Assembly: GCA_041650995.1 (NCBI GenBank)
Contig: JBAZJZ010000001.1
Span: forward strand, 299,302 to 363,301
DNA from: Patescibacteria group bacterium
Lineage (GTDB): Bacteria > Patescibacteriota > Patescibacteriia > XYB2-FULL-38-15
Length of the DNA stretch: 64,000 bases
Direction: 5' to 3'
The position numbers and the translations under genes are program-made. The notes below the pieces were generated by a model, which saw only the letters and a program-made list of their open reading frames with translations, made no database searches and had not been told where the DNA came from. Shown here in pieces: positions 5,597-57,628 of the stretch (the stretch's first letter is position 1; each line of letters begins with the position of its first letter).

Positions 5597-7195
5597 ATGC
5601 CTATACCAATTACAAAAAGACAAAAAGAAGTTTTAGACTTCATTAAGGGGTTCGTAAAAAAGAAGAAATATCCCCCAACTCTAGAGGAAATATGTAGTGG
5701 GCTTAAGCTTTCCGCTGTATCTACTGTTCATCAACACATTGAAGCTCTTGCCGAAAAAGGATACCTAAAAAAGGCCGGCAATAATGCCCGGTCAATTGAT
5801 GTGAGCGAACCAGAAACAATGATTAAAATTCCTCTACTTGGAACAATTGCGGCCGGAGAACCGATTGAAGCAATTCAGCAAAATGAATTTATTGCTGTAC
5901 CCAAAACAAAATTACCGGCGCATGGTGAAGTTTATGCCCTTCGAGTAATTGGCAACAGTATGATCGACGAGAATATTAACGATGGAGATATTGTCCTGGT
6001 TAAACATCAGAGTACAGCTGAAAACGGCCAAAAAATTGTCGCGCTTATAAACAATCAAGAAACTACCTTAAAAAAATTCTATAAAGAAAAGGGGCACATA
6101 CGTTTACAACCGGCAAATAAAACCATCGAACCTATTATTTTAGACAGAGGAACTCCATTGGCTATCCAGGGAATAGTTTTGGATGTAATAGAAAGTCAAC
6201 CAAGAATAGAGGTCTCAAACAAACAAGAGCCAAAAAAAGAGACTGCGCAGCAACTCCTTTCGCTATCACAAAAGAAAATTAAAATTTCTCATAAACCAGC
6301 CACAGATGCCGACGTGATACTTTTTCATGGTGACCGGCTTGATCTTATGAAAGGATTACCTGATAAATCCGTAAAACTTGTCGTCACTTCACCACCATAC
6401 AACATTGGCAAAGAATACGAAAAAAGAAAAGATTTAGATTTGTATCTGGCCGAACAAGAAGAAACTATAAAAGAAGCGATCCGTATTCTTACTGATGATG
6501 GCAGTATTTGCTGGCAGGTTGGAAATCATATCGGCAAAGACGGTGAGGTCTTTCCGCTCGATGCGCTCATTTATGCTATAGGGAAAAAACTAGGTCTTAA
6601 ATTACGGAATAGAATTATTTGGCGATTTGGGCACGGCCTACATTGTACAAAGAGGTTTTCAGGACGACACGAAACGATTGTTTGGTTTACCAAGGGCGAT
6701 AATTATACTTTCAACCTTGATCCTGTCCGCGTGCCCCAAAAGTATCCAGGCAAAAAGAATTTTAAGAAAAATGAAAAGTATGGAACCTTATCAGGCAATC
6801 CCCTAGGAAAGAACCCTGAAGATGTGTGGGATATACCAAACGTCAAAAATAATCATCCGGAAAAAACAAATCATCCATGCCAGTTTCCAATTGAGCTTAT
6901 AGAGCGTTTGATATTATCCATGACCAACCCGGGAGATGCTGTGCTTGATCCGTATTTGGGCGTAGGGAGCGCAATCTGCGCTGCAGTGATTCATAACCGC
7001 AAAGGATATGGATCGGACATTATGAAGGGGTATTTGGATACTGCTGAAGAAAGAGTCAAGGCAGCTGCAAATGGCACACTAAACCGCCGGATGATGGGAA
7101 CACCGGTTTATCAACCAACCAGCAATGTAAAGCTTGCTGAATTACCAGATGAGTTTAAGAAAGCTCGTGAGAGTCTATTTGGGCCCGGGCTTTGA
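5597..7195 (+). CDS. LexA-like repressor (HTH plus S24 autopeptidase) fused to a beta-class DNA N4-C/N6-A methyltransferase (M.BglII-like)
   Basis: N-terminal half: LexA wHTH (TLEEICSGLKLSAVSTVHQHIEALAEKGYLKK), Ala-Gly cleavage site (IAAGEPIEA), Ser nucleophile (GNSMIDENINDGDIVLV) and Lys (TLKKFY). C-terminal half: VVTSPPYNIGKEY (motif IV DPPY-type) followed by LDPYLGVGSAICAA (motif I FxGxG); this beta-class order is read as N4C/N6A. Confidence 0.8.
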   Translation: MPIPITKRQKEVLDFIKGFVKKKKYPPTLEEICSGLKLSAVSTVHQHIEALAEKGYLKKAGNNARSIDVSEPETMIKIPLLGTIAAGEPIEAIQQNEFIAVPKTKLPAHGEVYALRVIGNSMIDENINDGDIVLVKHQSTAENGQKIVALINNQETTLKKFYKEKGHIRLQPANKTIEPIILDRGTPLAIQGIVLDVIESQPRIEVSNKQEPKKETAQQLLSLSQKKIKISHKPATDADVILFHGDRLDLMKGLPDKSVKLVVTSPPYNIGKEYEKRKDLDLYLAEQEETIKEAIRILTDDGSICWQVGNHIGKDGEVFPLDALIYAIGKKLGLKLRNRIIWRFGHGLHCTKRFSGRHETIVWFTKGDNYTFNLDPVRVPQKYPGKKNFKKNEKYGTLSGNPLGKNPEDVWDIPNVKNNHPEKTNHPCQFPIELIERLILSMTNPGDAVLDPYLGVGSAICAAVIHNRKGYGSDIMKGYLDTAEERVKAAANGTLNRRMMGTPVYQPTSNVKLAELPDEFKKARESLFGPGL

Positions 7196-7849
7196 CCCGT
7201 TGTATTTGCGAAGTTTTATTTTTGCTAGAGCCTCTGTTTTATTTGTTTTGAAAAGCTCTCTAAGAGTTTGGGATTTTGTTTTTTCTTCATCGGTCAAGCC
7301 GATACTTAAAACGAATACCGGAATATCAATATTACTTTCTCCTCGATTCTCAAAATCAACAAGTAGCTGTTCAAATGAGGAAACGCCGGTAGACATCAAT
7401 TTTACTAGCTCACTACTAGGCACGATCTCTATTCCGCATTCGATATATTTGAGATTTTTGAAAATGATCATCTTAGAAAAAATGTCATAACCCATAAAGG
7501 CATATTTTCCAAACTGAATTTCCAACCCAACTTTATTTTTTATTCCATCCATTTCACGAAATCTGCCTTTACCAAAAGCATGACGTGGCTCAACGAAATC
7601 CCGTTTCTTACCGTCTTTTGATTTCTCGGTCCAACCCTTTTTGTGAAGCTCATGTTTTAAATAATCATTCATGTCCACCGGCGAGAAGAGAACTTGTCCT
7701 TTTTTAGTTTTTTCTTTGCTCTCCTTCGTTAAACAAATAGTGCTATCCAAGGATTTTATTGCATTAAAAACTTCCTGAAGTTCTTTCGGGTGTTTTTCTT
7801 TGAGAAATTTCTCTCCGCCCTTAAATGAATAAGTATTGATAACCTTCAT
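7175..7849 (-). CDS. type II restriction endonuclease, BglII/BstYI family
   Basis: 224 aa. By-eye similarity to BglII: FSPVDMNDYLKHELHKKGW versus FDPVGTNQYIKDELVPKHW, and GLEIQFGKYAFMGYDIF versus LVEVQFSNYPFLLNNTV. Tail-to-tail with the MTase, overlapping it by 21 bp. Confidence 0.65.
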   Translation of the reverse strand: MKVINTYSFKGGEKFLKEKHPKELQEVFNAIKSLDSTICLTKESKEKTKKGQVLFSPVDMNDYLKHELHKKGWTEKSKDGKKRDFVEPRHAFGKGRFREMDGIKNKVGLEIQFGKYAFMGYDIFSKMIIFKNLKYIECGIEIVPSSELVKLMSTGVSSFEQLLVDFENRGESNIDIPVFVLSIGLTDEEKTKSQTLRELFKTNKTEALAKIKLRKYNGSKPGPK

Positions 7850-7965
7850 AAACCTATCTAAATTAGAAATCCCTTATAACTACAGGATATCAGAGAAATT
7901 GAAAAAAATCTATAACTAAGTTTTTGTCAGCTTTTGCCAGAATAATTTATCCACAGGGGGCCCTA

Positions 7966-8124
7966 TTGACGGCGGCCTTTATGGTCCGCTATTATGGACC
8001 TGTAAGATAGGAGTTTGCCTGACGGCGTTCCGATTTATCGGAACTAAGTGAGACGAGGCTACGACTTCTGTCATTAAGCACTACGTGTTTTTTGCTTGAT
8101 GATTAGAAGTGGTAGCCTCTTTTT
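7966..8124 (+). ncRNA. candidate small RNA: sigma70-like promoter (TTGACG-18-TATTAT, 7966-7995) to an intrinsic terminator (gaggctacgacttctg...tagaagtggtagcctc plus T5, 8055-8124)
   Basis: Promoter-like hexamers and a long GC-rich hairpin followed by a T-run in an otherwise AT-rich intergenic region; internal hairpin gttccgatttatcggaac. Confidence 0.3.
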
Positions 8125-8230
8125 ATTTATATAAATTAATTTAATACCCTTCTGAGGCAATCGCCTGGATAGGACATACATTTTGATAAGACGAGATTAG
8201 AGGCTAGCTCCCAGTTGGGGCCAGCCTTTT

Positions 8231-8431
8231 ATGTTGCCCCAAGAAGCAGTCCAACAATTCAAAGAATTATACGAAAAACGCTACGGCGTAAATCTCACTG
8301 ACGAGGAGGCTTCTTTGCGCGCTAACAATCTTTTTAATCTTTATAAAATCACCTATATCGGTGAACCTTCAATAAAAGACTTTAATAAAAAAGTAGTGAA
8401 AAGCCATGACCTCAAACCAAACCATAATTAG
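8231..8431 (+). CDS. hypothetical small protein (66 aa)
   Basis: ORF track only. Confidence 0.3.
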   Translation: MLPQEAVQQFKELYEKRYGVNLTDEEASLRANNLFNLYKITYIGEPSIKDFNKKVVKSHDLKPNHN

Positions 8432-8714
8432 CGAAATCCAATTCTACCCCGTTAAGCCCAAGGACGGACTCCTCGGGTTCGTTTCGTTTGTCCTGGACGG
8501 AAAATTCTGGATGGGGTCAGTGGCAGTATTCAGCAGGCCAGATGGCAATTACAGGTTGGTTTATCCGACACGTAAAGTAGCGGGTCAGAATATTAATATT
8601 TTTCATCCGATCACATATGAGGTCGGCCAACAGGTCGAAGTGGCCGTCAGTGAAAAAGTAGCTGAAATATTTAGTGAAAATTATGGACCAGACGAACCAA
8701 CAAGAAGCGAATGA
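8406..8714 (+). CDS. spoVG: SpoVG-family protein
   Basis: GFVSFVLDGKFWMGSVAVFSRPDGNYRLVYPTRKVAGQNINIFHPITYEVGQQVEVAV matches the SpoVG core (ASITIDNEFVVHDLRVIDG...RTPDGEFRDIAHPIN). Confidence 0.6.
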   Translation: MTSNQTIISEIQFYPVKPKDGLLGFVSFVLDGKFWMGSVAVFSRPDGNYRLVYPTRKVAGQNINIFHPITYEVGQQVEVAVSEKVAEIFSENYGPDEPTRSE

Positions 8715-9117
8715 AAAACATTTTAATTGTTTTTTCACTCCGCATAAAATTTTTGATGATGAAAAATTATGCCGGTCATTGACTCACGCCGAACACGGTT
8801 TTTTTACAGCTTTATGCCATTTACATAACCGTTGTGCTAACAAAGATGGATGGTTCTGGCATGTAGATCATTCTTTTACAGATAAAAACGGAAAGAAACT
8901 GGGATTTGCCACCATGGGTTTTGGCAGTTCAACCTGTAAGAGAGCGCGAATTAAATTAGTCAGACTTAAATTGATAGAAATCAAACCGTATATTACCGAT
9001 GAAAGTACTTGGCCGGCTACAATGTATCGCATTAATCCAAAACTCCTCTACGGTACCGGAGACCAAATTGGTCCACGGTCGAAGACCAATTTGAACTCTG
9101 GCCCGGGACCACCATGA
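8674..9117 (+). CDS. hypothetical protein (147 aa), island cargo
   Basis: ORF track; no recognisable motif. Confidence 0.45.
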   Translation: MKIMDQTNQQEANEKHFNCFFTPHKIFDDEKLCRSLTHAEHGFFTALCHLHNRCANKDGWFWHVDHSFTDKNGKKLGFATMGFGSSTCKRARIKLVRLKLIEIKPYITDESTWPATMYRINPKLLYGTGDQIGPRSKTNLNSGPGPP

Positions 9118-9192
9118 GCCCCTAAGTAATAAAGAGTAAATAATAAAAAATAATTAAGATTGCCTAATTAAGGCGAGCAAGCTCGTAAAAAT

Positions 9193-9813
9193 ATGAATCA
9201 ACAACCTACAACTTCAAAGATGCCAAAAGAAACCGAGCAGCAATACACGGCTTGGCTTTTGTATTGCGAATACGGGAGCATCGACAAACTGCTTCAGGCT
9301 TGGCAAGGAATCGAGAGGCGGACAAAGGCGGATGAAAGGCGGACAGAATTTGAAGCTCTAATGGAGAAATTAGGTAATCCTCCGGCGCGAACCACCATAG
9401 GAGAATGGTCAATAAAATATCAATGGATAAAAAGAAAAGAAATGAAGATAGCGGAAGATTTGGAAGCTCTACGAGAAAAGACGAAAAAAATAAAGCGAGA
9501 AAAGCTCCATAGGATCGCTGAAATATTTGACCGAATTACTAACAAAATTCTCAAAGGGCTTCGAGGAAATGAAGAACCAACTATTTCAGAATGGAAAATG
9601 GTCTGGGACATGTTTCAGATCGAGCTTGGCAAACCTACCACCAGAGGCGAATTAAAGACAGAACCAGAACAACGACCACTGACTCCCGAAGAAAAAGAGC
9701 ACGGAAAGAGACTTCATAAAGCTGTGGAATGGTATTTGGAAAACCAGCTGGATGATGAAGACAAATGGCAAGAATTCCAAAAGCTCATTGAGAAAAATAA
9801 GAAAATGAGATAA
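9193..9813 (+). CDS. hypothetical protein (206 aa), charged/coiled-coil
   Basis: ORF track. Confidence 0.5.
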   Translation: MNQQPTTSKMPKETEQQYTAWLLYCEYGSIDKLLQAWQGIERRTKADERRTEFEALMEKLGNPPARTTIGEWSIKYQWIKRKEMKIAEDLEALREKTKKIKREKLHRIAEIFDRITNKILKGLRGNEEPTISEWKMVWDMFQIELGKPTTRGELKTEPEQRPLTPEEKEHGKRLHKAVEWYLENQLDDEDKWQEFQKLIEKNKKMR

Positions 9814-9821
9814 AATAGAAT

Positions 9822-9966
9822 TGCGTCCTACAAGTTTGAATTAAAGCACAGGGTAATTGCTTCTTTTGAAGCCCAATTGCGGGCTGAAAGGGGCGACTAT
9901 CCTCCACAATTGGTTGCCTTGTGCAATTCAATCTTGTGGGACGCAGGCTCTGGTCGTCCCTTTTTG
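9822..9966 (+). promoter_or_regulatory. structured leader with mutually exclusive anti-terminator (9822-9835 pairing 9934-9947) and terminator (gggacgcaggctctggtcgtccc plus T5, 9938-9966); attenuator/riboswitch-like
   Basis: A 12-bp long-range stem gcgtcctacaag/cttgtgggacgc shares gggacgc with the terminator 5' arm; it encloses a ~100-nt GC-richer domain with an internal ccaattg/caattgg stem. Confidence 0.35.
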
Positions 9967-10041
9967 TTTTGTTTGACTTCCTAAAACCTTCGGCCCATGT
10001 TGTGTGTAGAAAGGCCGAAATCAATATTAAGTAAATAATTA

Positions 10042-10914
10042 ATGAACAAACATATGAAAAATAAAGCCATAATTTACGCCGTAATCGCCATTGTAGCGGT
10101 CTTTGGGGCAGGTTACGGAGTTTATCACCTTCTAAGCAACGTACCGCAGAATAAAGGCAACGTTGATGTAGCCTCAATAACGACATTCGAGGCATGCAAC
10201 AAAGCAGGCTTCCCGACCATCAAACATTATCCCGACCAGTGCCAGACTCCTGACGGGAGAATCTTCGTCAATGAAAATCCTCCGAGCGAAGCCGAGCTCG
10301 CCAAAGCAGAATCTGCGATCAAGACATTTATGGGAGAGCCGAATCTGGAGCTTGAATACATAACGCAAAAAAGACATCCCGCAAACTTCTCAGTCTTAAG
10401 CAACGTCAAACAAAATGACGGCGGGTTCACAGCCGACACTCCCGAAGAATGGTATCGCCCAGTCTACATTTTCCAGCAAAAGAATTATATCAATGACCGA
10501 TGTGAAGTCTACCAATACCAAGTGACGATCAAAACAAATCAGGTCGTGGAGATTGGAATTGTCTACCCGATAGAACGCAATGCCACAACGCCAGGCAATT
10601 GCCCTGATAATGGTTCGCTTGAGACTCCGTTAAAGACCAAAGCCGAGATTGAGCAGATTGCATTTGCTTATTTCGGCAGAGACCCGGAACACACAAAATT
10701 CATGCTCCGATCAGACATCCAGCCTCAATATATTCCAAGCAAGGCAGGCGCAGCGAATCCCGCACAAAACGAATGGCGATGGGAAGATAAAAATGTCTCG
10801 CTCCCAGATGGACTAACAGGCGATCCCTGGCAACATCCAATCGCCAGAATAATAATATCGAGTGGCGGTAAGCTGATTTATTACCTGAACACCACCGACT
10901 TATTTAAAAACTAA
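10042..10914 (+). CDS. secreted/membrane-anchored hypothetical protein (290 aa)
   Basis: N-terminal signal anchor (AIIYAVIAIVAVFGAGYGVY). Confidence 0.55.
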   Translation: MNKHMKNKAIIYAVIAIVAVFGAGYGVYHLLSNVPQNKGNVDVASITTFEACNKAGFPTIKHYPDQCQTPDGRIFVNENPPSEAELAKAESAIKTFMGEPNLELEYITQKRHPANFSVLSNVKQNDGGFTADTPEEWYRPVYIFQQKNYINDRCEVYQYQVTIKTNQVVEIGIVYPIERNATTPGNCPDNGSLETPLKTKAEIEQIAFAYFGRDPEHTKFMLRSDIQPQYIPSKAGAANPAQNEWRWEDKNVSLPDGLTGDPWQHPIARIIISSGGKLIYYLNTTDLFKN

Positions 10915-10915
10915 T

Positions 10916-12526
10916 ATGAACTCAGAGGAATTAACAAAAATAACATATTTCCTCTACGCCAGAAAATCATCTGAACAAGAAGACAGACAAGTACTCTCAA
11001 TTGATTCTCAGAAAAGTGAGCTTGAATCATTAGCTAAAAAAGAAAGACTAAATATTGTAAGTCGGTTTGAGGAATCATACTCGGCCAAAGGCCCGGGCAG
11101 AAAAATCTTTAATGAAATAATCGCCCGGATAGAAAAAGGTGAAGCCAATGCTATTCTTGCGTGGCATCCAAACAGGCTCTCAAGAAACTCGGTTGATACC
11201 GGATATTTGATCTATCTCATGGATCAAAACAAATTGCTTGAAATCCGGACTCCGGGCCAGACATTCAAAAATACTCCCAACGATAAATTCCTTCTTAACC
11301 TGCTTTGCAGCCAGGCCAAACTTGAAAACGACAACAAAGGCATAGATGTGAAGCGCGGGTTGAGGCGCAAAGTAGAATTGGGATGGCATCCCGGTCCGGC
11401 TCCGATCGGCTATTTAAACACGCCCGACAAAGAAAAAGGATTTAAGACAATCCGTAAAGATTCAAAAATGTTCCCGATTATCAGGAAAATGTTTGATATG
11501 GTCTTGAGCGGGAGCTATACCGCACCAAGAGTGCATGAGATCGCAGTCAATCAATGGGGTTTAAAGAAATTGGCCCGAAGCGGCTTCTATCGCACGCTTT
11601 ATAATCCCTTCTATTATGGCTGGTTTGAATGGCCAAGAGGTAGTGGTAACTGGCATAAAGGTAAACACGAACCGATGATCACGCGCGAAGAATTCGATCG
11701 CGTCCAACAGCTACTCCATCCTGGTCAAAAACCAAAGCCCGAAAAGCACGTCTTCGCTTATACCGGCATGATCCGCTGTGGCGAGTGTGGCTGTATGGTT
11801 ACGGCCGAAAATAAAGTTAAAAGAAATAAGCAGGGTGGCGAACATTATTATACTTATTACCACTGCACGAAGCGCAAAGGCCCGTGCAGTCAGCAATGCA
11901 TTGAAATAAAGGATTTAGAAAAGCAGATAGCAAAAACTCTGACCGGCATTGAAGTACCGCCAGAATTCCACAGCTGGGCTATGACATGGCTCCGGGCCGA
12001 GAACGGCAGAGAATCAAGCGACAGAAATAACATTCTTAACAATCTACAAAAGAATTACGAGGTGTGTGTCCGTAAGCTGGACACGCTGATTGATATGCGC
12101 GCTGCCGGGGAGATCACTGAAGAAGAATTTAACAAAAAGAAATCGACGGTGACCCAGGAAAAAGCCAGACTCCAGGAACTTTTAAATGACACTGACAACC
12201 GCGTAGACAGCTGGCTCGATGTTGCAAACCGGGTCATTAGATTCTCTGAAGACGCAAAAGAAGCATTCGAAAACAAAGGACTTCAGGCCAAGAAAATCAT
12301 TCTGGCCGGCCTCGGTTCGAACCTCCTCTTAAAAGACAAAATACTCGAGATTGACGTACAAAATGCACTCCTGCCCATGCAACTCGTCTCTTCCGGGGCG
12401 AAAATAAAAACAAACCGGTTAGAACCGGTCAAAGTGAGCCTAAATAAAGAGAAAAGCAGAGCTTTTGGCTCTGCAAATCCCACATGGCTCCGGGGGTGGG
12501 ATTCGAACCCACGACCAATCGGTTAA
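10916..12526 (+). CDS. large serine recombinase (resolvase N-domain, recombinase domain, Zn ribbon); putative island integrase
   Basis: YARKSSEQEDRQ...SIDSQ catalytic Ser region, NRLSRN, CGECGC...YYHCTKRKGPC zinc ribbon. The last ~14 codons are read through the tRNA-Asn 3' end. Confidence 0.85.
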   Translation: MNSEELTKITYFLYARKSSEQEDRQVLSIDSQKSELESLAKKERLNIVSRFEESYSAKGPGRKIFNEIIARIEKGEANAILAWHPNRLSRNSVDTGYLIYLMDQNKLLEIRTPGQTFKNTPNDKFLLNLLCSQAKLENDNKGIDVKRGLRRKVELGWHPGPAPIGYLNTPDKEKGFKTIRKDSKMFPIIRKMFDMVLSGSYTAPRVHEIAVNQWGLKKLARSGFYRTLYNPFYYGWFEWPRGSGNWHKGKHEPMITREEFDRVQQLLHPGQKPKPEKHVFAYTGMIRCGECGCMVTAENKVKRNKQGGEHYYTYYHCTKRKGPCSQQCIEIKDLEKQIAKTLTGIEVPPEFHSWAMTWLRAENGRESSDRNNILNNLQKNYEVCVRKLDTLIDMRAAGEITEEEFNKKKSTVTQEKARLQELLNDTDNRVDSWLDVANRVIRFSEDAKEAFENKGLQAKKIILAGLGSNLLLKDKILEIDVQNALLPMQLVSSGAKIKTNRLEPVKVSLNKEKSRAFGSANPTWLRGWDSNPRPIG

Positions 12527-12559
12527 CAGCCGAACGCTCTGCCACTGAGCTACCCCGGA
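12485..12559 (-). tRNA. tRNA-Asn (anticodon GTT), CCA encoded
   Basis: Reverse complement tccggggtagctcagtggcagagcgttcggctGTTaaccgattggtcgtgggttcgaatcccacccccggagcca gives a cloverleaf with a GTT anticodon loop. Confidence 0.9.
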
Positions 12560-27588: not shown

Positions 27589-28338
27589 TTATAAATAGCT
27601 ATCAATAATTTGCTTAAATTGCTCATAAGGAACCGCTCCGCTCACCAACTCTCCGTTCACGAAAGTCGCGGGCGTACCTTCCACTCCGGCGGCTAATCCC
27701 TCTTCTTCTTCAGCGGCAATTTTACTCGCGTATTTTCCGGAATCTAAACATTCATTAAATTTCTTTGTATTCAACCCAAGATTTTTTGCTTCCGCTTTCC
27801 ATTTATCCACGCCCATTGTTCCGGCTTCGTTAGCCGCAAATATTTTATCATACATTTCCCAAAATTTTCCTTGCTCGGCCGCGCATTCTGAAGCTTCAGC
27901 CGCTTTTTGTGCGTTCGCATGGAAAGAAAGCGGATAATGACGAAAAACAACTCTCACCTTATCGCCGTAATTTTCCATAATTTGGTCCGTAGTTTTTTTA
28001 TGGTTTGCGCAATAAGGACATTCAAAATCAGAATATTCAATTAAAGTCACTTTGGCATTTGCGGAACCCTTCACGTGGTCATCAGAAGTCACGGCCGGCA
28101 CTGGGGTATATGACACTTCCGTCGGTTCGTTCGCGACAGGCTGATTAACATTTACTACGGCGTTTGTGTTATTATTTCCATTCTCTTTAGCCAAATTTAT
28201 CCCCTGCCCAGAAAAAGCCAAAGCAAAAAAACCAACTAAGGCGAATGTGCTCATCCCGGCGATTCCGCACATAAGTCCAAGAAAAAAAGATGTTCGCCGC
28301 GTTCCATTTACTAAGTCATTATTCATTTGATCATTCAT
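27589..28338 (-). CDS. DsbA-like thiol:disulfide oxidoreductase (thioredoxin fold, CPYC)
   Basis: FECPYCANH active site; N-terminal TM anchor. Confidence 0.75.
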   Translation of the reverse strand: MNDQMNNDLVNGTRRTSFFLGLMCGIAGMSTFALVGFFALAFSGQGINLAKENGNNNTNAVVNVNQPVANEPTEVSYTPVPAVTSDDHVKGSANAKVTLIEYSDFECPYCANHKKTTDQIMENYGDKVRVVFRHYPLSFHANAQKAAEASECAAEQGKFWEMYDKIFAANEAGTMGVDKWKAEAKNLGLNTKKFNECLDSGKYASKIAAEEEEGLAAGVEGTPATFVNGELVSGAVPYEQFKQIIDSYL

Positions 28339-28403
28339 AAATTTTAATTAAAAAAATTAATGTTTAATGAGTTAAAAAATTTTACTATAAATATCTGCCG
28401 CTG

Positions 28404-29180
28404 TCAAATTGCACTTTTACTATCAACTTTATTGCGGCGTTTTAATTTGTAAAATAACCAAATTCCGCCCGCCGACAAAATTATTGATAAATACTGCGCT
28501 AAGGTTAATCCAAGGTATCTCGGATCAGAACCGACTAAATCTTCTGCTCGAAAAAAATCCAAGAAAAAACGAACTGCTCCGTAAAAAATGGCAAAGGTTG
28601 AGACGTAAAAACCCGTGAACCGTTCTTTGCGCCGCAAAAATAAAAATATCAAAAAAATAGCTAGACCAAGTAGGGCGTCATATAATCCTAAATCATGGCG
28701 AACGCCGTCAGGAAAATTTACTCCTAAAAAAAATTCTGTTTTTATCCCAGGATGATCGTGAATTGAAAAGCACCCCAGTCGCCCGATAAAAAGCCCGAGT
28801 GGTAAACCGAAGGCCACTGCGTCGGCATATTGCCAAAAATCTAGTTTATATTTTTTTAAATAAATCACTGCGGCAAAAATAGCACCAAAAAATCCCCCAT
28901 AAACCGACATTCCGCCGTGCCATAATTTTAAAATCTCAAGCGGCGCGGCAGAATAAAAATTCAAGTGTTCCACGACAAAAAATATTCGACCGCCGATTAA
29001 AGCAGACAAAATTATCCAAAAAGCTAAATCATAAATGCGATTGGCGTCCAGTTTTCTTTTCTTTAATTCAAAGTAAGCGACAACCATTCCGATAACAAAA
29101 CCCAAGGATACAAAAATTCCCCAAACATTCAATTTCAGAAAACCCAAATAAATTGAGTGATATTCAAACCAAGGAATCAT
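28404..29180 (-). CDS. lgt: prolipoprotein diacylglyceryl transferase
   Basis: GGRIFFVVEH and GLFIGRLGCFSIHDHPG, corresponding to the Lgt signature GRIGNFINGE. Confidence 0.7.
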   Translation of the reverse strand: MIPWFEYHSIYLGFLKLNVWGIFVSLGFVIGMVVAYFELKKRKLDANRIYDLAFWIILSALIGGRIFFVVEHLNFYSAAPLEILKLWHGGMSVYGGFFGAIFAAVIYLKKYKLDFWQYADAVAFGLPLGLFIGRLGCFSIHDHPGIKTEFFLGVNFPDGVRHDLGLYDALLGLAIFLIFLFLRRKERFTGFYVSTFAIFYGAVRFFLDFFRAEDLVGSDPRYLGLTLAQYLSIILSAGGIWLFYKLKRRNKVDSKSAI

Positions 29181-53139: not shown

Positions 53140-53595
53140 CTAAATTTTAATATCCACCTTATCTCCTATTTTTATCCCGTGCTCCGCGGCAAACCCGGCG
53201 TTGACTTCTAAAACATAATTAGCTGGTTCTCTCGGTGTGTAGGTTGATAAAAATTCCGCGGCCGTAACCGGAAGATTTGGCGCGATATCAACAACTACAT
53301 TATTTTTAATCCAAATAATATCAATGGAAAAATTCATATCTTTCATCCAAAATGCCGGCTGACCGGGGGTAGCAAAAATAAAAAGCATTCCATGATTTTT
53401 ATCCAAACTTTTACGGTTGCTTAAACCTTTTGCCATTTCCATCGGCTCATCAGCGATTTCCACTTTAACTTTTACATCATCAATAATTACTGAGCCGTGT
53501 TCTTCGACGTATTGGCCTACTTTTAAAAATCCCGCCGCCGCCAAAATTACGATAAAAATGACCGAATAAAAACGTTCCATAACATTCAATGTCAT
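53140..53595 (-). CDS. DUF192 domain protein
   Basis: MAKGLSNRKSL...GMLFIF...FWMKDMNFSIDIIW pattern. Confidence 0.65.
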   Translation of the reverse strand: MTLNVMERFYSVIFIVILAAAGFLKVGQYVEEHGSVIIDDVKVKVEIADEPMEMAKGLSNRKSLDKNHGMLFIFATPGQPAFWMKDMNFSIDIIWIKNNVVVDIAPNLPVTAAEFLSTYTPREPANYVLEVNAGFAAEHGIKIGDKVDIKI

Positions 53596-53667: not shown

Positions 53668-53724
53668 AAATAATTCTTTTAATTATTGTACCAAAATATC
53701 ATAAAATCGCAAGCTAAATAAAAA

Positions 53725-53811
53725 CCCTGGAGTGAGTGAGCAATCCTCGAATATCCAGACAAACAGAGAGAGATTTGTTTGCTGAACGAGGCTTACTCAC
53801 TCGCTTCAGGG
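53725..53811. repeat. 87-bp imperfect palindrome (ccctggagtgagtgag...ctcactcgcttcaggg with inner caaaca...tgtttg)
   Basis: Read directly; lies at the left boundary of the GC-rich segment. Confidence 0.6.
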
Positions 53812-54017
53812 TTCAAACATTTTTTGAGGCCACCACCCGACTGAAATTCATGTTAACTAATTTGAGCGGGTGACATTCTCGAAAAATGCGGGGAGTTACT
53901 AAGCATAAACTTTTCACTCCCCCGAGGCTCTGCTTCCTCTGGGCTCACCACTGCGCAGGTGACGCGTTCGGGCGCGGCTGGCGAACGTTGACCTTGCGGT
54001 CAAGCGATGGCAGCTAT

Positions 54018-54191
54018 CTATCTCACGCCTACCTCCTTCTTTTCGCCGAGCAGGAACCGGACGAACTGGTCCAGCTGCGGCTCGTACCGCTGCATGAGCC
54101 GGGCCGTCGCCTGCGGTGTGATCCGGTCGGCGATTCTGACCACAAGTACTGTGGAGACGAGAATCGCCGTGCTAGCGATCTCCCATGCCAT
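54018..54191 (-). CDS. GC-rich small membrane protein (57 aa from MAWEIAS...)
   Basis: RBS agggag; start chosen at the internal Met of the track ORF. Confidence 0.4.
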   Translation of the reverse strand: MAWEIASTAILVSTVLVVRIADRITPQATARLMQRYEPQLDQFVRFLLGEKKEVGVR

Positions 54192-54211
54192 CTTCACAAT
54201 TTTTCTCCCTT

Positions 54212-54493
54212 CTAGCCGATCTTCCGAGGATTTGTTGCGACGAACACCAAGTACGCCGCGACGAGCAGAACGACGTTCAGGAGGACGGCACCGAGATTGG
54301 CGGCCGGTCTCCACCAGGCGTTCGGCAACGCCAGATAGAACTCTCTGTAGATCGTCGCCCCTCCCGCGAGGACAGCCACGATCGTGAACACGAAGGCTCC
54401 ACCTGGAGAACCTTGCGCCCAGCGGAGGATGATCATCGCCCCGAAGGCAACGATCATCACCCAGAACGCGATCGTTCCGATTGCTTCGAGCAT
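54212..54493 (-). CDS. GC-rich small membrane protein (93 aa)
   Basis: ORF track; three TM helices. Confidence 0.45.
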   Translation of the reverse strand: MLEAIGTIAFWVMIVAFGAMIILRWAQGSPGGAFVFTIVAVLAGGATIYREFYLALPNAWWRPAANLGAVLLNVVLLVAAYLVFVATNPRKIG

Positions 54494-54505
54494 CTTCTTC
54501 TCTTT

Positions 54506-54640
54506 CTACCCGCCGAGGACCAGCAAGGTCCCGACGAAAGCGAAAAAGACAATGAACAGAAAAACATTGCCCTCGGCTCCGTCTTCTGCCCCACCGACAA
54601 CCATGAGCCGCCGGCGTTCCAGTTTTTGCACTCCTTTCAT
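54506..54640 (-). CDS. GC-rich small membrane protein (~45 aa, MKGVQKLERRR...)
   Basis: The upstream part of the track ORF is translation of the leader repeat; the start is trimmed to the first Met downstream of the repeat. Confidence 0.35.
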   Translation of the reverse strand: MKGVQKLERRRLMVVGGAEDGAEGNVFLFIVFFAFVGTLLVLGG

Positions 54641-54898
54641 GAGAATGTACAGGTACGCTCCTACCACCAAAACTCCCAATGCCAACCTGAACAATCTCTT
54701 TTCCTCCTTCTTTGAAAGCACCACTTCTCGTGATGCCCTCGAAAAAGGGCGGAACTCATTTTTTAGGTGGGTTCCGCTAACTCGCTTAAGTTGCTCGTCG
54801 CGCATTACTGCGTGATTTCGCAAAACTTTAGCGAGCGCTCAACCTAGGATGGTTGAACTTTCCTGGCATACTTTGGAAGCCAGGACGTTGGGAAGGAA
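54641..54898 (-). repeat. leader repeat unit 1 (homologous to 55286-55586 and 56067-56333)
   Basis: Shared blocks gatgccctcgaaa.agggcggaactcatt..ggtgggttccgct...gcaagccgctcaacctaggatggttgaactttcctggcatactttgg. Confidence 0.8.
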
Positions 54899-55285
54899 CT
54901 ACGAGCAGCCCTCGTCGACCGTGCCGTCGCAGTCGTCATCGACCCTATTGCAGTCCTCTTCGGTCGAGACGAATTGCGACTTGCAGGCAGTCCACTCACG
55001 GTTCAGGCAGGTGCTCATGCCGATTGCGCAAATGCCACGCGCGCCATCCACCGAACAAGTCTGTACCGAACCCTCCGGCACCTCCTCTAGACGGCCGTCC
55101 TCGTAGACGAGGCACCCTCCTTCTACCGCCTCCGTACCCGCCGGCTCGTCGATGATAGGCTGGCTCGTACCGCCGAAATCGAAAGTGTAGTACTGCGAGA
55201 GCCAAGCCGCGAGACCGATGCCGACGAGAATCAATCCCACGACGATCGCCGCGACCTCCGCTCTCTTCGACCTCTGCGTCATCAT
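54899..55285 (-). CDS. GC-rich secreted Cys-rich protein with C-terminal DDDCDGTVDEGC metal-binding-like motif (128 aa)
   Basis: Signal anchor; 10 Cys; RBS aggaaggaagggg. Confidence 0.5.
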   Translation of the reverse strand: MMTQRSKRAEVAAIVVGLILVGIGLAAWLSQYYTFDFGGTSQPIIDEPAGTEAVEGGCLVYEDGRLEEVPEGSVQTCSVDGARGICAIGMSTCLNREWTACKSQFVSTEEDCNRVDDDCDGTVDEGCS

Positions 55286-55586
55286 ATCTCTCCCTCCCCT
55301 TCCTTCCTTGTTTGTTGCCCAATGAAGGGCAGTGTAAAGAACTTTGTCCCGGACACGCGAGATATTCGCGGCCGAGAAACTTTCCTCTCTTCGAGCTCAC
55401 CACTTGCATGATGCCCTCGAAAGAAGGCGGAACTCATTTTTGAGGTGGGTTCCGCTGGAGCTCGCTTGGTTGCTTGTCGCACACTTGCGTGTGAGATTTT
55501 ACAAACCTTTGCAAGCCGCTCAACCTAGGATGGTTGAACTTTCCTGGCATACTTTGGTTTGAATTTGCCAGGACGTTTGGAAGGAG
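55286..55586 (-). repeat. leader repeat unit 2
   Basis: See unit 1. Confidence 0.8.
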
Positions 55587-56066
55587 CTACGAACTGCAGC
55601 CAAGCATCTGCGGCGTCAGCAACAGATTGCCTTCGCCGCCGATCCACGGATGGCGAATCACTGCCGGTTCCACCGAGAGACCGTCAACGGTAACCATGAG
55701 ACGGTCGAGCATGCCCAGATCGCCGTACCAGCGTCCGTCGGTACGTCGAGCATTGACCTCGACGCCTCCCGCGCGACCGCAGGCCTGCGCCTTGGTCAGC
55801 CGCACCTCGAACATGGCCGGCCCGTAGGACACATCTCCGTTCGAGGCATCACCGGGATCGACTGCGTGAAAGATGTAAATCTCGGCCGACTGCTCATCCT
55901 TGGAGTTAATCCGAACCGTCACGGAGTCCCGCTGCTTGTCCGCGCGCTTGTCTGCCAGCAGAGCCAGAAGACCCAAGCTCAACATGCCGAACATGAAAAA
56001 GCAAACCGCACCCACAAGCCACCAATTGCGCCACCAGTTGCTGAGAGCCTTCAGTGCCTTCTTCAT
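55587..56066 (-). CDS. GC-rich membrane-anchored protein (~160 aa from MKKALKALSNWW...)
   Basis: RBS aaggagaag; the longer track ORF (to 56162) runs into the repeat. Confidence 0.45.
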   Translation of the reverse strand: MKKALKALSNWWRNWWLVGAVCFFMFGMLSLGLLALLADKRADKQRDSVTVRINSKDEQSAEIYIFHAVDPGDASNGDVSYGPAMFEVRLTKAQACGRAGGVEVNARRTDGRWYGDLGMLDRLMVTVDGLSVEPAVIRHPWIGGEGNLLLTPQMLGCSS

Positions 56067-56333
56067 CTTCTTCTCCTTTTTCCTTCCTTGTTGTAAAGAA
56101 CTTTGTCCCGGACACGCGATGATTCGCGCGCCGAGAAAACTTCCTCTCTTCGAAAGTACCACTTTCGTGATGCCCTCGAAAAAGGGCGGAACTCATTGTG
56201 GTGGGTTCCGCTAAACTTGCTTGGTTGCTTGTCGCACATTACTGTATGATTTTGCAAAACCTTGCAAGCCGCTCAACCTAGGATGGTTGAACTTTCCTGG
56301 CATACTTTGGAAGCCAGGACGTTGGGAAGGAAG
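56067..56333 (-). repeat. leader repeat unit 3
   Basis: See unit 1. Confidence 0.8.
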
Positions 56334-56693
56334 CTATGGCACACATTCGCAGATGCCGTAGTCACAGTAGCCAAACTTCTCTCTGCAAGAATTCCGGCAC
56401 TCTTCATCCCTGCAGAATCTCTCATCGTTCAGGTCGCACCGTTCGCCGATGCCATCATTGTCCGCATCGAACTGGTCGGGGTTAGGATCAATAGGACAGT
56501 TGTCCCAACGATCTGGAATCTTGTCGCCATCCTGATCCTTTATCATGACCGGCTGAACAACCACGCCCCGCCAGTGGAGAGAAGCCGCTCGGGAAACTTC
56601 CAGGCAAAAACCGCGCAACGCGCAGAAAAACGTGAAAACGACGAACGTGAACGACGCTACCGTGATTACTGTCCTTGCCACTTTTCCATTCAT
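56334..56693 (-). CDS. GC-rich secreted protein with thrombospondin-type-3-like Asp-rich Ca-binding repeats and Cys-rich C-terminus (119 aa)
   Basis: DKIPDRWDNCPIDPNPDQFDADNDGIGERCDLNDE; signal peptide. Confidence 0.5.
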   Translation of the reverse strand: MNGKVARTVITVASFTFVVFTFFCALRGFCLEVSRAASLHWRGVVVQPVMIKDQDGDKIPDRWDNCPIDPNPDQFDADNDGIGERCDLNDERFCRDEECRNSCREKFGYCDYGICECVP

Positions 56694-56786
56694 TATGTTT
56701 TTACTTCCTTATTTCATCCGCCAAAGGCGGACTGGTCAATGAACTATTCCCTTGTCGCACCATGCGGTTTAGGAAATCTCTTCAGT

Positions 56787-56867
56787 GGCGCTGGTGGGAA
56801 TTGAACCCACTCTGACCCGGTCGACCCTTGCGGGCTCTCTCCTTGAGACTTTTTGACCGGCAGCGCC
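56787..56867 (-). other. tRNA-like element (T-arm gtgggttcaattcccac plus 7-bp acceptor-like stem ggcgctg/cagcgcc) lacking a normal D/anticodon arm
   Basis: Minus-sense ggcgctgccggtcaaaaagtctcaaggagagagcccgcaagggtcgaccgggtcagagtgggttcaattcccaccagcgcc-a; a second long-range stem ccggtc/gaccgg replaces the D/anticodon region. Confidence 0.3.
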
Positions 56868-56955
56868 CCTCGAGCAGAAACTCGTGCTTCTGCCCTGGCT
56901 TGAATCGATGAATACTCATCGCCTCAAGTCATTTAGACAAACAAAAACGGGCGAG

Positions 56956-57104
56956 GAGAGAATCCGCCCGAAATTAAATTATTTGTACAAATAATTTAGG
57001 GTGGTTTCCCGCCAAATCGGCGGGTCTCTCTCAAACCAACTTATCTTATTGTCAACAAATTAGTATACCATAAAAACAACAATCTGTCAAGAGTTTTTGA
57101 CAGA
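56956..57104 (-). ncRNA. candidate ~110-nt small RNA: near-consensus promoter (TTGACA-17-TATACT, 57076-57104) to an intrinsic terminator (cgggcggattctctcctcgcccg plus T5, 56956-56984)
   Basis: Hexamers and spacing read directly. The -35 box lies in a 7-bp perfect inverted repeat ctgtcaa-gagttt-ttgacag (57098-57117). Internal hairpin cccgccgatttggcggg. Confidence 0.4.
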
Positions 57105-57142: not shown

Positions 57143-57628
57143 AAATTTACCCCTCCCCTTAAGAATTGACTACTCTTCCCCTCCTCCCTGAGGAGGGGTT
57201 GGGGGTGGTGCGTAATTTTTGCAAAATTATTGCCAAAGCATTATCTAAACTATCTCTCACATCGTTGTCTGTAAAACGCACAACTCTTATGCCAGCCCTT
57301 TCAATAAATTCTTGTTTTACGCGGTCGTGTTCCGCAGCTCCAATTTGATAATGACTATCACCATCAATTTCCACCGCGAGTTTAGCTTCCGGACAATAGA
57401 AATCGACAACATACGGCCCTATTCCTTGCTGCCGGCGAAATTTGTAGCCGCCCAGATTATTCCCACATAAATAATGCCAAATTATTTTTTCAGAACACGT
57501 GGGACGGTTGCGAAGATTTCGACGCGTTAACTTTTGTGATTTGCGGTTAAATAGTTTGATCATAACCACCCCTTGATCCCCTCCTTGGAAAGGAGGGGAA
57601 ACTACAACCTTAAGAGGGGGAAATTTAC
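57143..57628. mobile_element. small element with imperfect terminal inverted repeats plus subterminal cccctcc...ggagggg hairpins at both ends, carrying a DUF559 nuclease gene
   Basis: Left aaatttacccctccccttaag and right cttaagagggggaaattt; hairpins at 57177-57198 and 57578-57599. Confidence 0.5.
57159..57569 (-). CDS. DUF559 (Vsr/PD-(D/E)xK-like) endonuclease domain protein
   Basis: RRQQGIGPYVVDFYCPEAKLAVEIDGDSH...RVVRFTDNDV pattern. Confidence 0.7.
   Translation of the reverse strand: MVMIKLFNRKSQKLTRRNLRNRPTCSEKIIWHYLCGNNLGGYKFRRQQGIGPYVVDFYCPEAKLAVEIDGDSHYQIGAAEHDRVKQEFIERAGIRVVRFTDNDVRDSLDNALAIILQKLRTTPNPSSGRRGRVVNS

Follow-up and report, generated by a model that had tools for sequence, protein, structure and literature searches.

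The stretch of DNA analyzed here, 64,000 nucleotides (nt) of a Patescibacteria group bacterium (assembly GCA_041650995.1, contig JBAZJZ010000001.1, positions 299,302 to 363,301; hereafter the window), carries six minus-strand genes, g1 to g6, that form one GC-rich block at ~53,850–56,900. We found that the first three of these genes, which we call cargo, are each followed by a copy of one and the same spacer unit. The unit is a structured RNA module of the sense strand with six to seven hairpins, and it serves as the 3′ untranslated region (UTR) of one cargo gene and as the 5′ UTR of the next. The block as a whole appears to be a lineage-specific hypervariable surface-protein locus of a genus-level group of groundwater Patescibacteria. 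The reading that we favor, with a probability of about one half, is that of a single operon in which portable RNA units gate expression and cargo is swapped by homologous recombination. Coordinates are those of the window, and all features of the operon are on its minus strand.

Position and Conservation of the Spacer Units

Unit A (56067–56336, 270 nt) occupies the g1–g2 spacer, unit B (55286–55589, 304 nt) the g2–g3 spacer, and unit C (54695–54901, 207 nt) the g3–g4 spacer. Units A and B have the full form, with an extra hairpin (H7) ahead of the ribosome-binding site (RBS) in unit B; unit C has a short form made of hairpins H1 to H5. Across all loci described below, the unit length varied from 207 to 390 nt. 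A preliminary description of this DNA had reported three mutually homologous units running from a TAG stop codon to the next RBS, and we confirmed both points. Each unit starts at the TAG stop of the upstream gene and ends at the RBS of the next one; the mean column identity is 77%, with an invariant run of 41 nt. The nhmmer E-values of the three units, from 1e-51 to 1e-72, exclude chance homology.

A scan of the window with the nhmmer unit profile (homology searches for units used such profiles) returned units A, B, and C, one degenerate copy at the operon tail, and no others. The units have a single orientation, are confined to the operon, and stay in register with the stop codon and the RBS. 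We also checked whether the unit is a common insertion sequence (IS) or miniature inverted-repeat transposable element (MITE); it is neither, and there are no dispersed copies in the 64 kb.

A search of the window with Rfam 15 at gathering score produced two tRNAs only, with no family for the unit, the leader, or the tRNA-like element described below; the units had no match even at E≤10. Viral contigs scanned with conserved unit segments gave no match, and GTDB species representatives yielded no unit with an exact 21-base unit pattern, to which more diverged units are undetectable. A match to this pattern in L001 is located inside a trp operon and was rejected as a chance one. In the literature searches, we found no account of such a locus. 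Variable repeats of a diversity-generating retroelement were considered as well and rejected, as the repeats start after the stop codon, outside the coding 3′ ends.

RNA Structure of the Units

The fold of unit A has H1 at 56319–56295, H2 at 56292–56271, H3 at 56270–56214, H4 at 56211–56186, H5 at 56182–56147, and H6 at 56146–56095. In the minimum free energy (MFE) fold, a closing helix pairs 56332–56325 with 56087–56080. The MFE of unit A was -111.8 kcal/mol (z-score -7.4) for the sense strand compared to -96.8 kcal/mol (z-score -4.3) for the antisense; for unit B it was -125.1 kcal/mol (z-score -5.8). In an alignment of 14 units (H1, H3 as three nested helices, H4, H5, and H6), 96.9% of the cells were paired, with 15 compensatory pairs; none of 500 shuffles scored as high, and slid controls gave 31–44%. 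When the alignment had 21 units and included H7, 92.2% of the cells were paired, with 19 compensatory pairs, the covariation score was again reached by 0 of 500 shuffles, and slid controls did not exceed 46%. The pair table of the 14 units had, by tally, 57 G-U cells. The G-U cells and the better folding of the sense strand assign the structure to the mRNA-sense strand. Of the two roles proposed earlier for the conserved unit, regulatory leader or recombination site, pairing and covariation bear out the first, with the unit behaving as a regulatory or structural RNA leader.

The hairpins differ in how strictly they are conserved. The H1 loop sequence is conserved among units; still, H1 of unit L138_b is a different stem (L numbers designate related loci, with suffixes for units), one group of units has, in place of H2, a longer hairpin of a different kind, and both H1 and H2 are absent from some working-looking units (L006_b, L132_a). 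H4 (AGCGGAAC..AUGAGUUCCGCC) is invariant in 21 out of 21 units, whereas all other helices vary. It has a GC-rich stem of 7–8 bp and a loop of 9–13 nt, and a spacer of 1–2 nt separates it from UUUUUC, UCUUUC, or UUUUCC. The U/C tract 3′ of H4 doubles as the 5′ arm of H5. An invariant ATG in the H4 loop suggested a conserved upstream ORF (open reading frame; MSSALFRGHH..); we rejected it, as the frame is lost past ~10 codons and there is no Shine–Dalgarno (SD) sequence ahead of it.

The lower stem of H5 joins this pyrimidine tract with an SD-like purine tract; over the 21 units it is 98.3% paired, with two compensatory pairs (pair 207-351 is CG in eight units and UA in eight; pair 212-346 is UA in 14 units and CG in five). 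In the short units (unit C of the window, L126, and L131, where the short form also stands ahead of g4), this purine tract is itself the SD that serves the next gene; in unit C, the 3′ arm of H5 is the SD (AAGGAGG) of g4. In the cargo-free minimal locus L127, it is the SD of the first gene. In full-length units, H5 is followed by H6, optionally H7, and a purine-rich RBS region of 20–25 nt. The length of H5 is at least 36 nt, and its loop, alone among the parts of the unit, tolerates MITE insertions (50–110 nt). We observed two MITE families in the units of relatives, distinct from the 74-nt insert described below, both inserted specifically in the H5 loop.

The closing helix appeared in the MFE folds of 13 out of 13 units. 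It pairs the unit 5′ end, which consists of the stop codon and UUCCUUCC, the tract starting 0–2 nt past the TAG, with either the purine-rich RBS region or the next gene's start codon, and in these folds it makes the whole spacer one domain.

The hairpin and U-tract could also suggest that the unit is a transcription boundary or attenuator. H4 and the U-tract would then terminate transcription, partly or conditionally, with each cargo gene under separate control, and either H1–H3 would sense a ligand or a protein or a promoter within the unit would restart transcription. The GC-rich H4 stem followed by C(C/U)UUUUUC, with the U-tract shared with H5, agrees with this explanation; the layout of hairpin, U-tract, and H5 recurs after the true leader terminator and at the operon tail, H1–H3 are well structured with the conserved H1 loop, and unit B has a promoter-like site with 9 of 12 matching positions. 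On the other hand, the terminator scan, with a loop limit of 8, did not call H4, and many units have an interrupted U-tract. The promoter-like site is kept neither in units A and C nor in other loci, the loss of H1 and H2 from L006_b and L132_a would be odd for an aptamer, and there is no match to an Rfam riboswitch. We consider this role to be decidedly unlikely.

Related Loci and Variability of Cargo

We found about 15 related loci by a metagenome scan with the most conserved hairpin, by searches for homologs of g2 and g5, and by look-ups of their contigs. Of the 119 loci listed in the metagenome scan, seven were genuine, and more probably exist; the listing was dominated by an unrelated human-gut sequence with a 13-nt spacer. 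The match in L009 was set aside as unrelated, since there the H4 sequence is a plain terminator in a different context.

In the ~15 related Patescibacteria assemblies, the GC-rich operon is situated in the same slot, between the genes of a Glycos_transf_4 protein and a DUF192 protein. The slot is shared wherever the flanks are present, with flank proteins 76–94% identical in amino acid sequence, and it is GC-rich in L006, L008, L024, L126, L127–L130, L131, and L138. Every related locus has a GC content of 0.55–0.66, compared to 0.41–0.44 for the host genomes.

The number of cargo genes varied between loci: L127–L130 have none, L126, L131, and L138 have one each, L008 has two, the window has three, and L132 has at least three. 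Each cargo gene in the relatives is followed by the same spacer unit. The cargo-free loci (L127–L130, GC content 0.58) have the leader followed by g5 and one other small gene. Cargo proteins are mostly unrelated between genomes, and most of them have no homolog in the other loci; many in the relatives have lipoboxes and repeated DDDCDGxxDE modules. A search of metagenomes for the unit beside other cargo, which had been suggested at the outset, did find related loci with different cargo, and the cassette-like modularity proposed earlier holds, given that relatives with the same flanks and the same unit carry zero, one, two, three, or more mostly unrelated cargo genes.

These loci bear on the origin of the block. 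The units could be a selfish MITE-like repeat, or the block could be an assembly chimera or a recent foreign island inserted at a tRNA-like site. The GC content does step from 0.38 to 0.6 at both borders, a tRNA-like element stands at one border, and real MITEs and homing-endonuclease-type genes adjoin the locus. However, the units occur only within the operon, in one orientation and in register with the stop codon and the RBS; the 3′ end of the tRNA-like element is not repeated at the far border of the block, and no integrase was found within 10 kb. The locus has no phage or plasmid relatives and almost no outside protein relatives, and the same GC-rich locus with the same neighbor genes, including its cargo-free version, is present in ~15 assemblies. 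This synteny refutes the whole group of explanations, and we see next to no chance for any of them.

In particular, independent assemblies hold the block, among them a metagenome-assembled genome (MAG) from NCBI with a 567-kb contig. The shared slot and the GC-rich relatives exclude both a misassembly and a strain-specific foreign insertion; phage and plasmid matches are lacking as well. The earlier description of the segment as compositionally foreign, taken in the sense of a recent insertion, was not supported, as the cargo-free locus of relatives is GC-rich too and no outside donor was found. We also observed that a G+C content at third codon positions (GC3) of 0.61–0.79 persists in the cargo and in the conserved small membrane genes, with housekeeping proteins differing by 6–24% between genomes; such persistence is contrary to what would be expected for amelioration of an old transfer.

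Probable Exchange of Cargo

One apparent example of cargo turnover by homologous recombination within units was found. L004 and L005, which stem from two other samples, share with the window, at 100% identity, a mosaic block of 677 nt (55443–56119) that comprises the H6 3′ arm, the RBS, g2, H1–H3, and the H4 5′ arm. The remainder of both flanking units is only 74–93% identical there, the upstream unit part is nearer to unit B than to unit A, and the downstream gene codes for a different lipoprotein. One end of the mosaic block falls in the H6 loop (56119), the other in the H4 loop (55443); end-points that differ within the unit argue for homologous recombination or gene conversion and not for a site-specific crossover.

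A Pfam survey of ±10 kb at four loci (the window, L126, L127, and L131) detected no recombinase or integrase, and no tyrosine recombinase was found in the window at 1.7–18.9 kb (among ORFs of at least 220 aa) or at 21–44 kb. A large serine recombinase (10916–12526, plus strand), 42 kb off, was the one recombinase noticed in the window. Since it stands beside a tRNA-Asn gene and restriction-modification genes, it looks like a part of a separate integrated element.

An integron-like array, with units as attC-type single-stranded DNA (ssDNA) sites and cassettes moved by a site-specific recombinase encoded elsewhere, would explain the co-oriented, promoterless, unrelated ORFs behind one promoter, each followed by a structured repeat with complementary ends, as well as the variable number of cassettes among relatives; the serine recombinase might be cited in its favor. 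Its distance and its setting speak against that, as does the negative outcome of the search for a tyrosine recombinase. Moreover, the unit, with its 207–390 nt and six to seven hairpins, is unlike attC, a single imperfect hairpin of 57–141 nt, it includes the RBS, and the exchanged block has no single crossover point. The recombination-site reading of the preliminary description is not supported by the same data (no integrase within 10 kb at four loci, the number of hairpins, the differing block ends), and we judge an integron-like array to be very improbable.

Genes and Base Composition of the Block

The GC content of the block is 0.49–0.65 compared to 0.34–0.48 elsewhere in the window, and the genome has ~41% GC. 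The GC3 of g1–g6 is 0.61–0.79, against 0.36–0.48 in neighbor genes, and the order GC1 > GC2 < GC3 over codon positions matches the expectation for genuine coding sequence. The coordinates, GC, and GC3 confirmed the earlier account of six minus-strand genes in a GC-rich array. That all six code for Cys-rich proteins was right in part: g1 has ten Cys and g3 has eight, but g2 has three, and g4–g6 have none.

Gene g1 (56334–56693) codes for a cargo protein of 119 aa, rich in Asp (14 residues) and Cys and anchored by a transmembrane (TM) segment. It carries a single TSP_3 repeat (E=1.6e-5), with sub-threshold TSP3-repeat matches only in NCBIfam, and had no homolog among ten related loci searched. 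Gene g2 (55587–56066; 159 aa) is a cargo gene whose product has an N-terminal TM anchor. The g2 protein is identical in the NCBI MAG with the 567-kb contig and in two Logan assemblies; it has a 71% homolog in L006, there fused to a TSP3-like N-terminal part, and in no other related locus. The third cargo gene, g3 (54899–55285), codes for a TM-anchored Cys-rich protein of 128 aa with the C-terminus DDDCDGTVDEGCS (the recorded gene call is one aa shorter). The C-terminal DDDCDGTVDEGC gave a weak match to the MopE motif (E=0.011) that misses the Pfam cut-off, and the sole relative of g3 is a 186-aa protein in L126, 50% identical. The cargo proteins of the window are TM-anchored; many of those in relatives have lipoboxes.

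The remaining genes are closely packed, with gaps of 12 bp between g4 and g5 and 20 bp between g5 and g6. Gene g4 (54506–54694, TTG start) codes for a 2-TM protein of 62 aa, with 85–86% identity in L126 and L131. Gene g5 (54212–54493; 93 aa, 3 TM), the best-conserved gene of the locus, has an identical protein product in the NCBI MAG with the 567-kb contig. A homolog of g6 (54018–54191; 57 aa, 1 TM) closes the array in L047. Phage and defense roles were dropped, given that PHROGs and PADLOC had zero matches for g1–g6. No similarity of the locus to phages or plasmids was found; beyond the lineage, its proteins have almost no relatives, and an outside donor was not found.

Leader, tRNA-Like Element, and Terminator

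The best match in the region to a sigma-70-type promoter, TTGACA-17-TATACT with TG (11 of 12 positions), is located at 57062–57090 and is kept in the syntenic loci. There was no conserved internal promoter; the lone internal match, in unit B, is the 9/12 site mentioned above. Downstream is a riboswitch-like attenuator leader of 90 nt (56943–57032), conserved in at least seven loci and with no Rfam match. It is predicted to fold into GAGAGAG/UUCUCUC plus CCACCC/GGGCGG in competition with the terminator CGGGCGG..CGCCCG-U5, for UUCUCUC and GGGCGG are the loop and the 5′ half of that terminator. The P2 hairpin of the attenuator has five differing sequences among relatives, with the pairing kept in all of them. 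We noted a natural deletion of the attenuator in L131 and an insertion of ~70 nt in its AU-rich P3 in L127. Between the attenuator and the tRNA-like element are two leader hairpins (56868–56935; -29.2 kcal/mol, z-score -4.7), conserved in L008, L024, L064, L118, and L126.

The tRNA-like element (56783–56867, 85 nt, fold z-score -4.5) has a 7-bp acceptor stem and a T arm but no anticodon arm. It produced weak end-to-end matches to tmRNA and mascRNA and was negative in ARAGORN. It is present in four loci, with the acceptor stem pairing via compensatory changes in L008, L118, and L064. It is absent from L006, L024, L126, L127, L131, and L132; in L006, an H5 hairpin occupies its place. The preliminary description had the block ending next to a tRNA-like structure: the element does exist, but it sits at the operon head, in the leader, and is not a tRNA gene. 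A T-box reading, prompted by the T-box-like reverse complement of GGAACCCACC and the nearby tRNA-like element, was rejected because the strand is wrong and there is no Rfam match.

Another possibility is that the units are mainly signals of mRNA processing and stability. H4 would be read by a sequence-specific endoribonuclease or an RNA-binding protein and the tRNA-like element by RNase P; the polycistronic RNA would be cut into stable monocistronic mRNAs, with ends shielded by H1–H3 (3′) and by H5–H6 (5′). The invariance of H4 in all 21 units, with every other helix variable, is what such recognition would leave, and the acceptor/T-arm minihelix in the leaders of four loci, its compensatory changes, the H5 hairpin that takes its place in L006, and the confinement of MITE insertions to the H5 loop fit it too. 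Yet the locus has no candidate nuclease gene, and the predicted processing cannot by itself account for a unit 5′ end that adjoins the stop codon and is complementary to the RBS region. We consider processing rather unlikely as the main role of the units.

The leader of the first cargo gene (56694–56782), with UUUCCUAAAC.., AGUUCAUUGAC, a hairpin, and the RBS, is conserved in L006, L024, L064, L118, and L126, and in L132_a and L138_b a module of this type takes the place of the unit's 3′ part. At the other end of the operon, a tail module (53815–53915; nhmmer E=0.033) consists of a degenerate H4-like hairpin, a U-tract, and an H5-like hairpin; equivalent tail modules were found in L047, L126, L127, L131, and L138. 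It is followed by the operon terminator (53716–53811), a long GC-rich hairpin and then UUUUUAUUU (-45.4 kcal/mol, z-score -5.8), conserved in L127.

Proposed Explanation

One promoter, one terminator, co-oriented genes, and the lack of a conserved internal promoter suggest that the block is one operon. Transcription would start at the single strong promoter and pass through the riboswitch-like attenuator and, in some genomes, the tRNA-like element into zero to three or more cargo genes. The cargo would be membrane-anchored proteins or lipoproteins, often rich in Cys and Asp and TSP3- or MopE-like, and would be followed by the conserved small membrane proteins g4–g6 and then by the strong terminator.

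Within this operon, each unit would gate expression of the downstream cistron. H5 would pair its pyrimidine tract with the SD-like purine tract and bury the SD. The UUCCUUCC tract would pair with the RBS/start region of the next gene, so that a spacer of 200–390 nt is looped out and the stop codon meets the start codon. A ribosome that terminates at the stop codon could thus open up the start site that follows, or could re-initiate at it, which would amount to translational coupling. It is from the geometry of this stop-proximal pairing that we infer translational gating or coupling. The invariant H4 with its U-tract may act in partial termination or as a recognition site for a protein or RNase. 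Finally, a module shared by all cargo genes would be portable homology that permits gain, loss, and exchange of cargo with no dedicated recombinase.

Several observations weigh against this explanation. The operon structure is predicted, and so are processing and translational gating. Covariation does not support the closing helix. Both of its strands are near-invariant and of low complexity (pyrimidine and purine tracts), and more than one pairing register is possible; the helix of unit A masks an SD-like tract farther upstream, while the proximal AGGAG stays free. In full-length units, there is no start codon after the H5 purine arm, which limits SD sequestration by H5 to the short units and the minimal locus. 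That H4 is invariant in 21 out of 21 units, with no covariation, is more in keeping with a site recognized in a sequence-specific way by a protein or RNase than with a generic helix. As for the exchange, L004 and L005 are short Logan contigs that end in repeats; a mis-join of the assembly graph is possible, though the junction is the same in both. The model also does not account for the GC-richness of the operon, which extends to g4–g6 and to the cargo-free locus; our favored guess is that biased gene conversion acts at a hot spot of recombination.

A more far-reaching claim, which we put forward tentatively and hold to be doubtful, is that the unit represents a new class of portable intercistronic RNA modules that combine gating with homology for swapping, that the locus is an integrase-free analog of an integron, and that frequent gene conversion drives its GC-richness.

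Neighboring Elements and Significance

Mobile elements near the block, as noted in the preliminary description, are plausible. Upstream of the operon, at 57159–57600, a gene for a DUF559 protein (Vsr-like endonuclease) lies between 23-nt inverted repeats (57176–57198 and 57578–57600). In relatives, the same intergenic slot has a GIY-YIG gene with its own inverted repeats (L006, L008), a DUF559 gene (L126, L131), or nothing (L127), which suggests a hot spot for small selfish genes. On the other side, a 74-nt palindromic MITE-like insert (53668–53595) is situated just upstream of the DUF192 gene start and casts doubt on the ATG annotated at 53595. MITE-like inserts were also noted in L006, L008, L047, L064, L071, L131, and L132.

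Farther away, positions 5597–12559 are a probable integrated element, in which the serine recombinase abuts the tRNA-Asn gene (12485–12559, minus strand); it has an unusual fusion of a LexA DNA-binding domain, an S24 peptidase, and an N6-N4 methylase (5597–7195) and a gene for a BglII-like endonuclease (7175–7849). The genes for Lgt (prolipoprotein diacylglyceryl transferase) and a DsbA-like thioredoxin are adjacent at 27589–29180, consistent with export of lipidated, disulfide-rich surface proteins.

Patescibacteria (the candidate phyla radiation, CPR) are ultra-small, mostly uncultured episymbionts, and, to our knowledge, there is only limited insight into how they vary the cell surface needed for contact with hosts. 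The locus is a concrete case of a hypervariable operon for surface proteins, one that can be followed from strain to strain. It brings together in one transcript a well-supported structured RNA of ~270 nt absent from Rfam, a riboswitch-like leader, and a tRNA-like element, and may be a natural design in which one RNA module acts both as an expression controller and as a recombination handle. The sharp, lineage-wide GC anomaly could be used to test whether biased gene conversion shapes local base composition in bacteria.

Comparison With Known Systems

With integron arrays, such as the VCR/attC arrays of Vibrio, the locus shares unrelated, promoterless, co-oriented ORFs behind one promoter, a conserved structured repeat after each ORF, and a content that varies between close relatives. 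Integron arrays have IntI and attI, neither of which was found at this locus, and the spacer unit is two to four times as long as attC, has many hairpins, and includes the RBS. While attC is a palindrome of bottom-strand ssDNA with R″/L″ and L′/R′ cores, the unit folds better as mRNA sense; hairpin H2 (8 bp), its sole RYYYAAC/GTTRRRY pair, gives way to other sequences in relatives. Thus, three out of four defining features of integrons (integrase, attC architecture, and a fixed crossover point) are lacking here, and promoterless ORFs behind one promoter are present.

The vpma locus of Mycoplasma consists of six genes with a unique promoter and recombination sites in the 5′ UTRs, adjoined by the Xer1 recombinase and a tRNA-Lys gene (PMC2268961). 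Similar to the loci vpma, vsp, and vsa, the locus described here belongs to a host-dependent bacterium with a reduced genome and clusters genes for surface (lipo)proteins that have a conserved 5′ UTR and divergent coding sequences, with one promoter per cluster and a tRNA or tRNA-like element at the edge. In the Mycoplasma loci, however, the genes lie in both orientations, and the promoter is moved by a neighboring tyrosine recombinase that inverts DNA at sites of ~70 bp. Here, the genes are co-oriented, there is no adjacent recombinase, a structured RNA of 200–390 nt extends from the upstream stop codon, and variation has so far been observed between strains, not as phase switching.

Translational coupling by long-range mRNA pairing is known for the MS2 coat and replicase genes and for E. 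coli rpmI–rplT. Operon mRNAs fold as ORF-centered units (PMC5318159). The common feature is a sequence by the end of the upstream ORF that complements the downstream RBS region, as predicted here; what differs is that here the pairing belongs to a repeated, portable module of 200–390 nt placed between unrelated genes.

RNA thermometers of the fourU type and SD-sequestering hairpins make up a known class, to which H5 is similar in the pairing of its U/C-rich run with an SD-like purine tract, where compensatory changes occur. By prediction, H5 sequesters an SD in the short units and the L127 minimal locus, not in full-length units. It differs from fourU elements in its length of 36 nt or more, in the MITE insertions in its loop, and in its position away from the start codon in full units.

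A tRNA gene or a tRNA-targeted island would have a cloverleaf with an anticodon arm, an integrase, and a 3′-end repeat, none of which is present here, and MITE or IS repeats are dispersed in unrelated contexts, whereas the units exist only as in-register operon copies. With the comparative-genomics motifs of Rfam 15, the unit shares the character of a conserved multi-helix intergenic RNA with covariation. The carrier RNA motif itself is absent from Rfam 15 and from the literature searched; the layout of the locus recalls both integron arrays and the Mycoplasma surface-protein loci.

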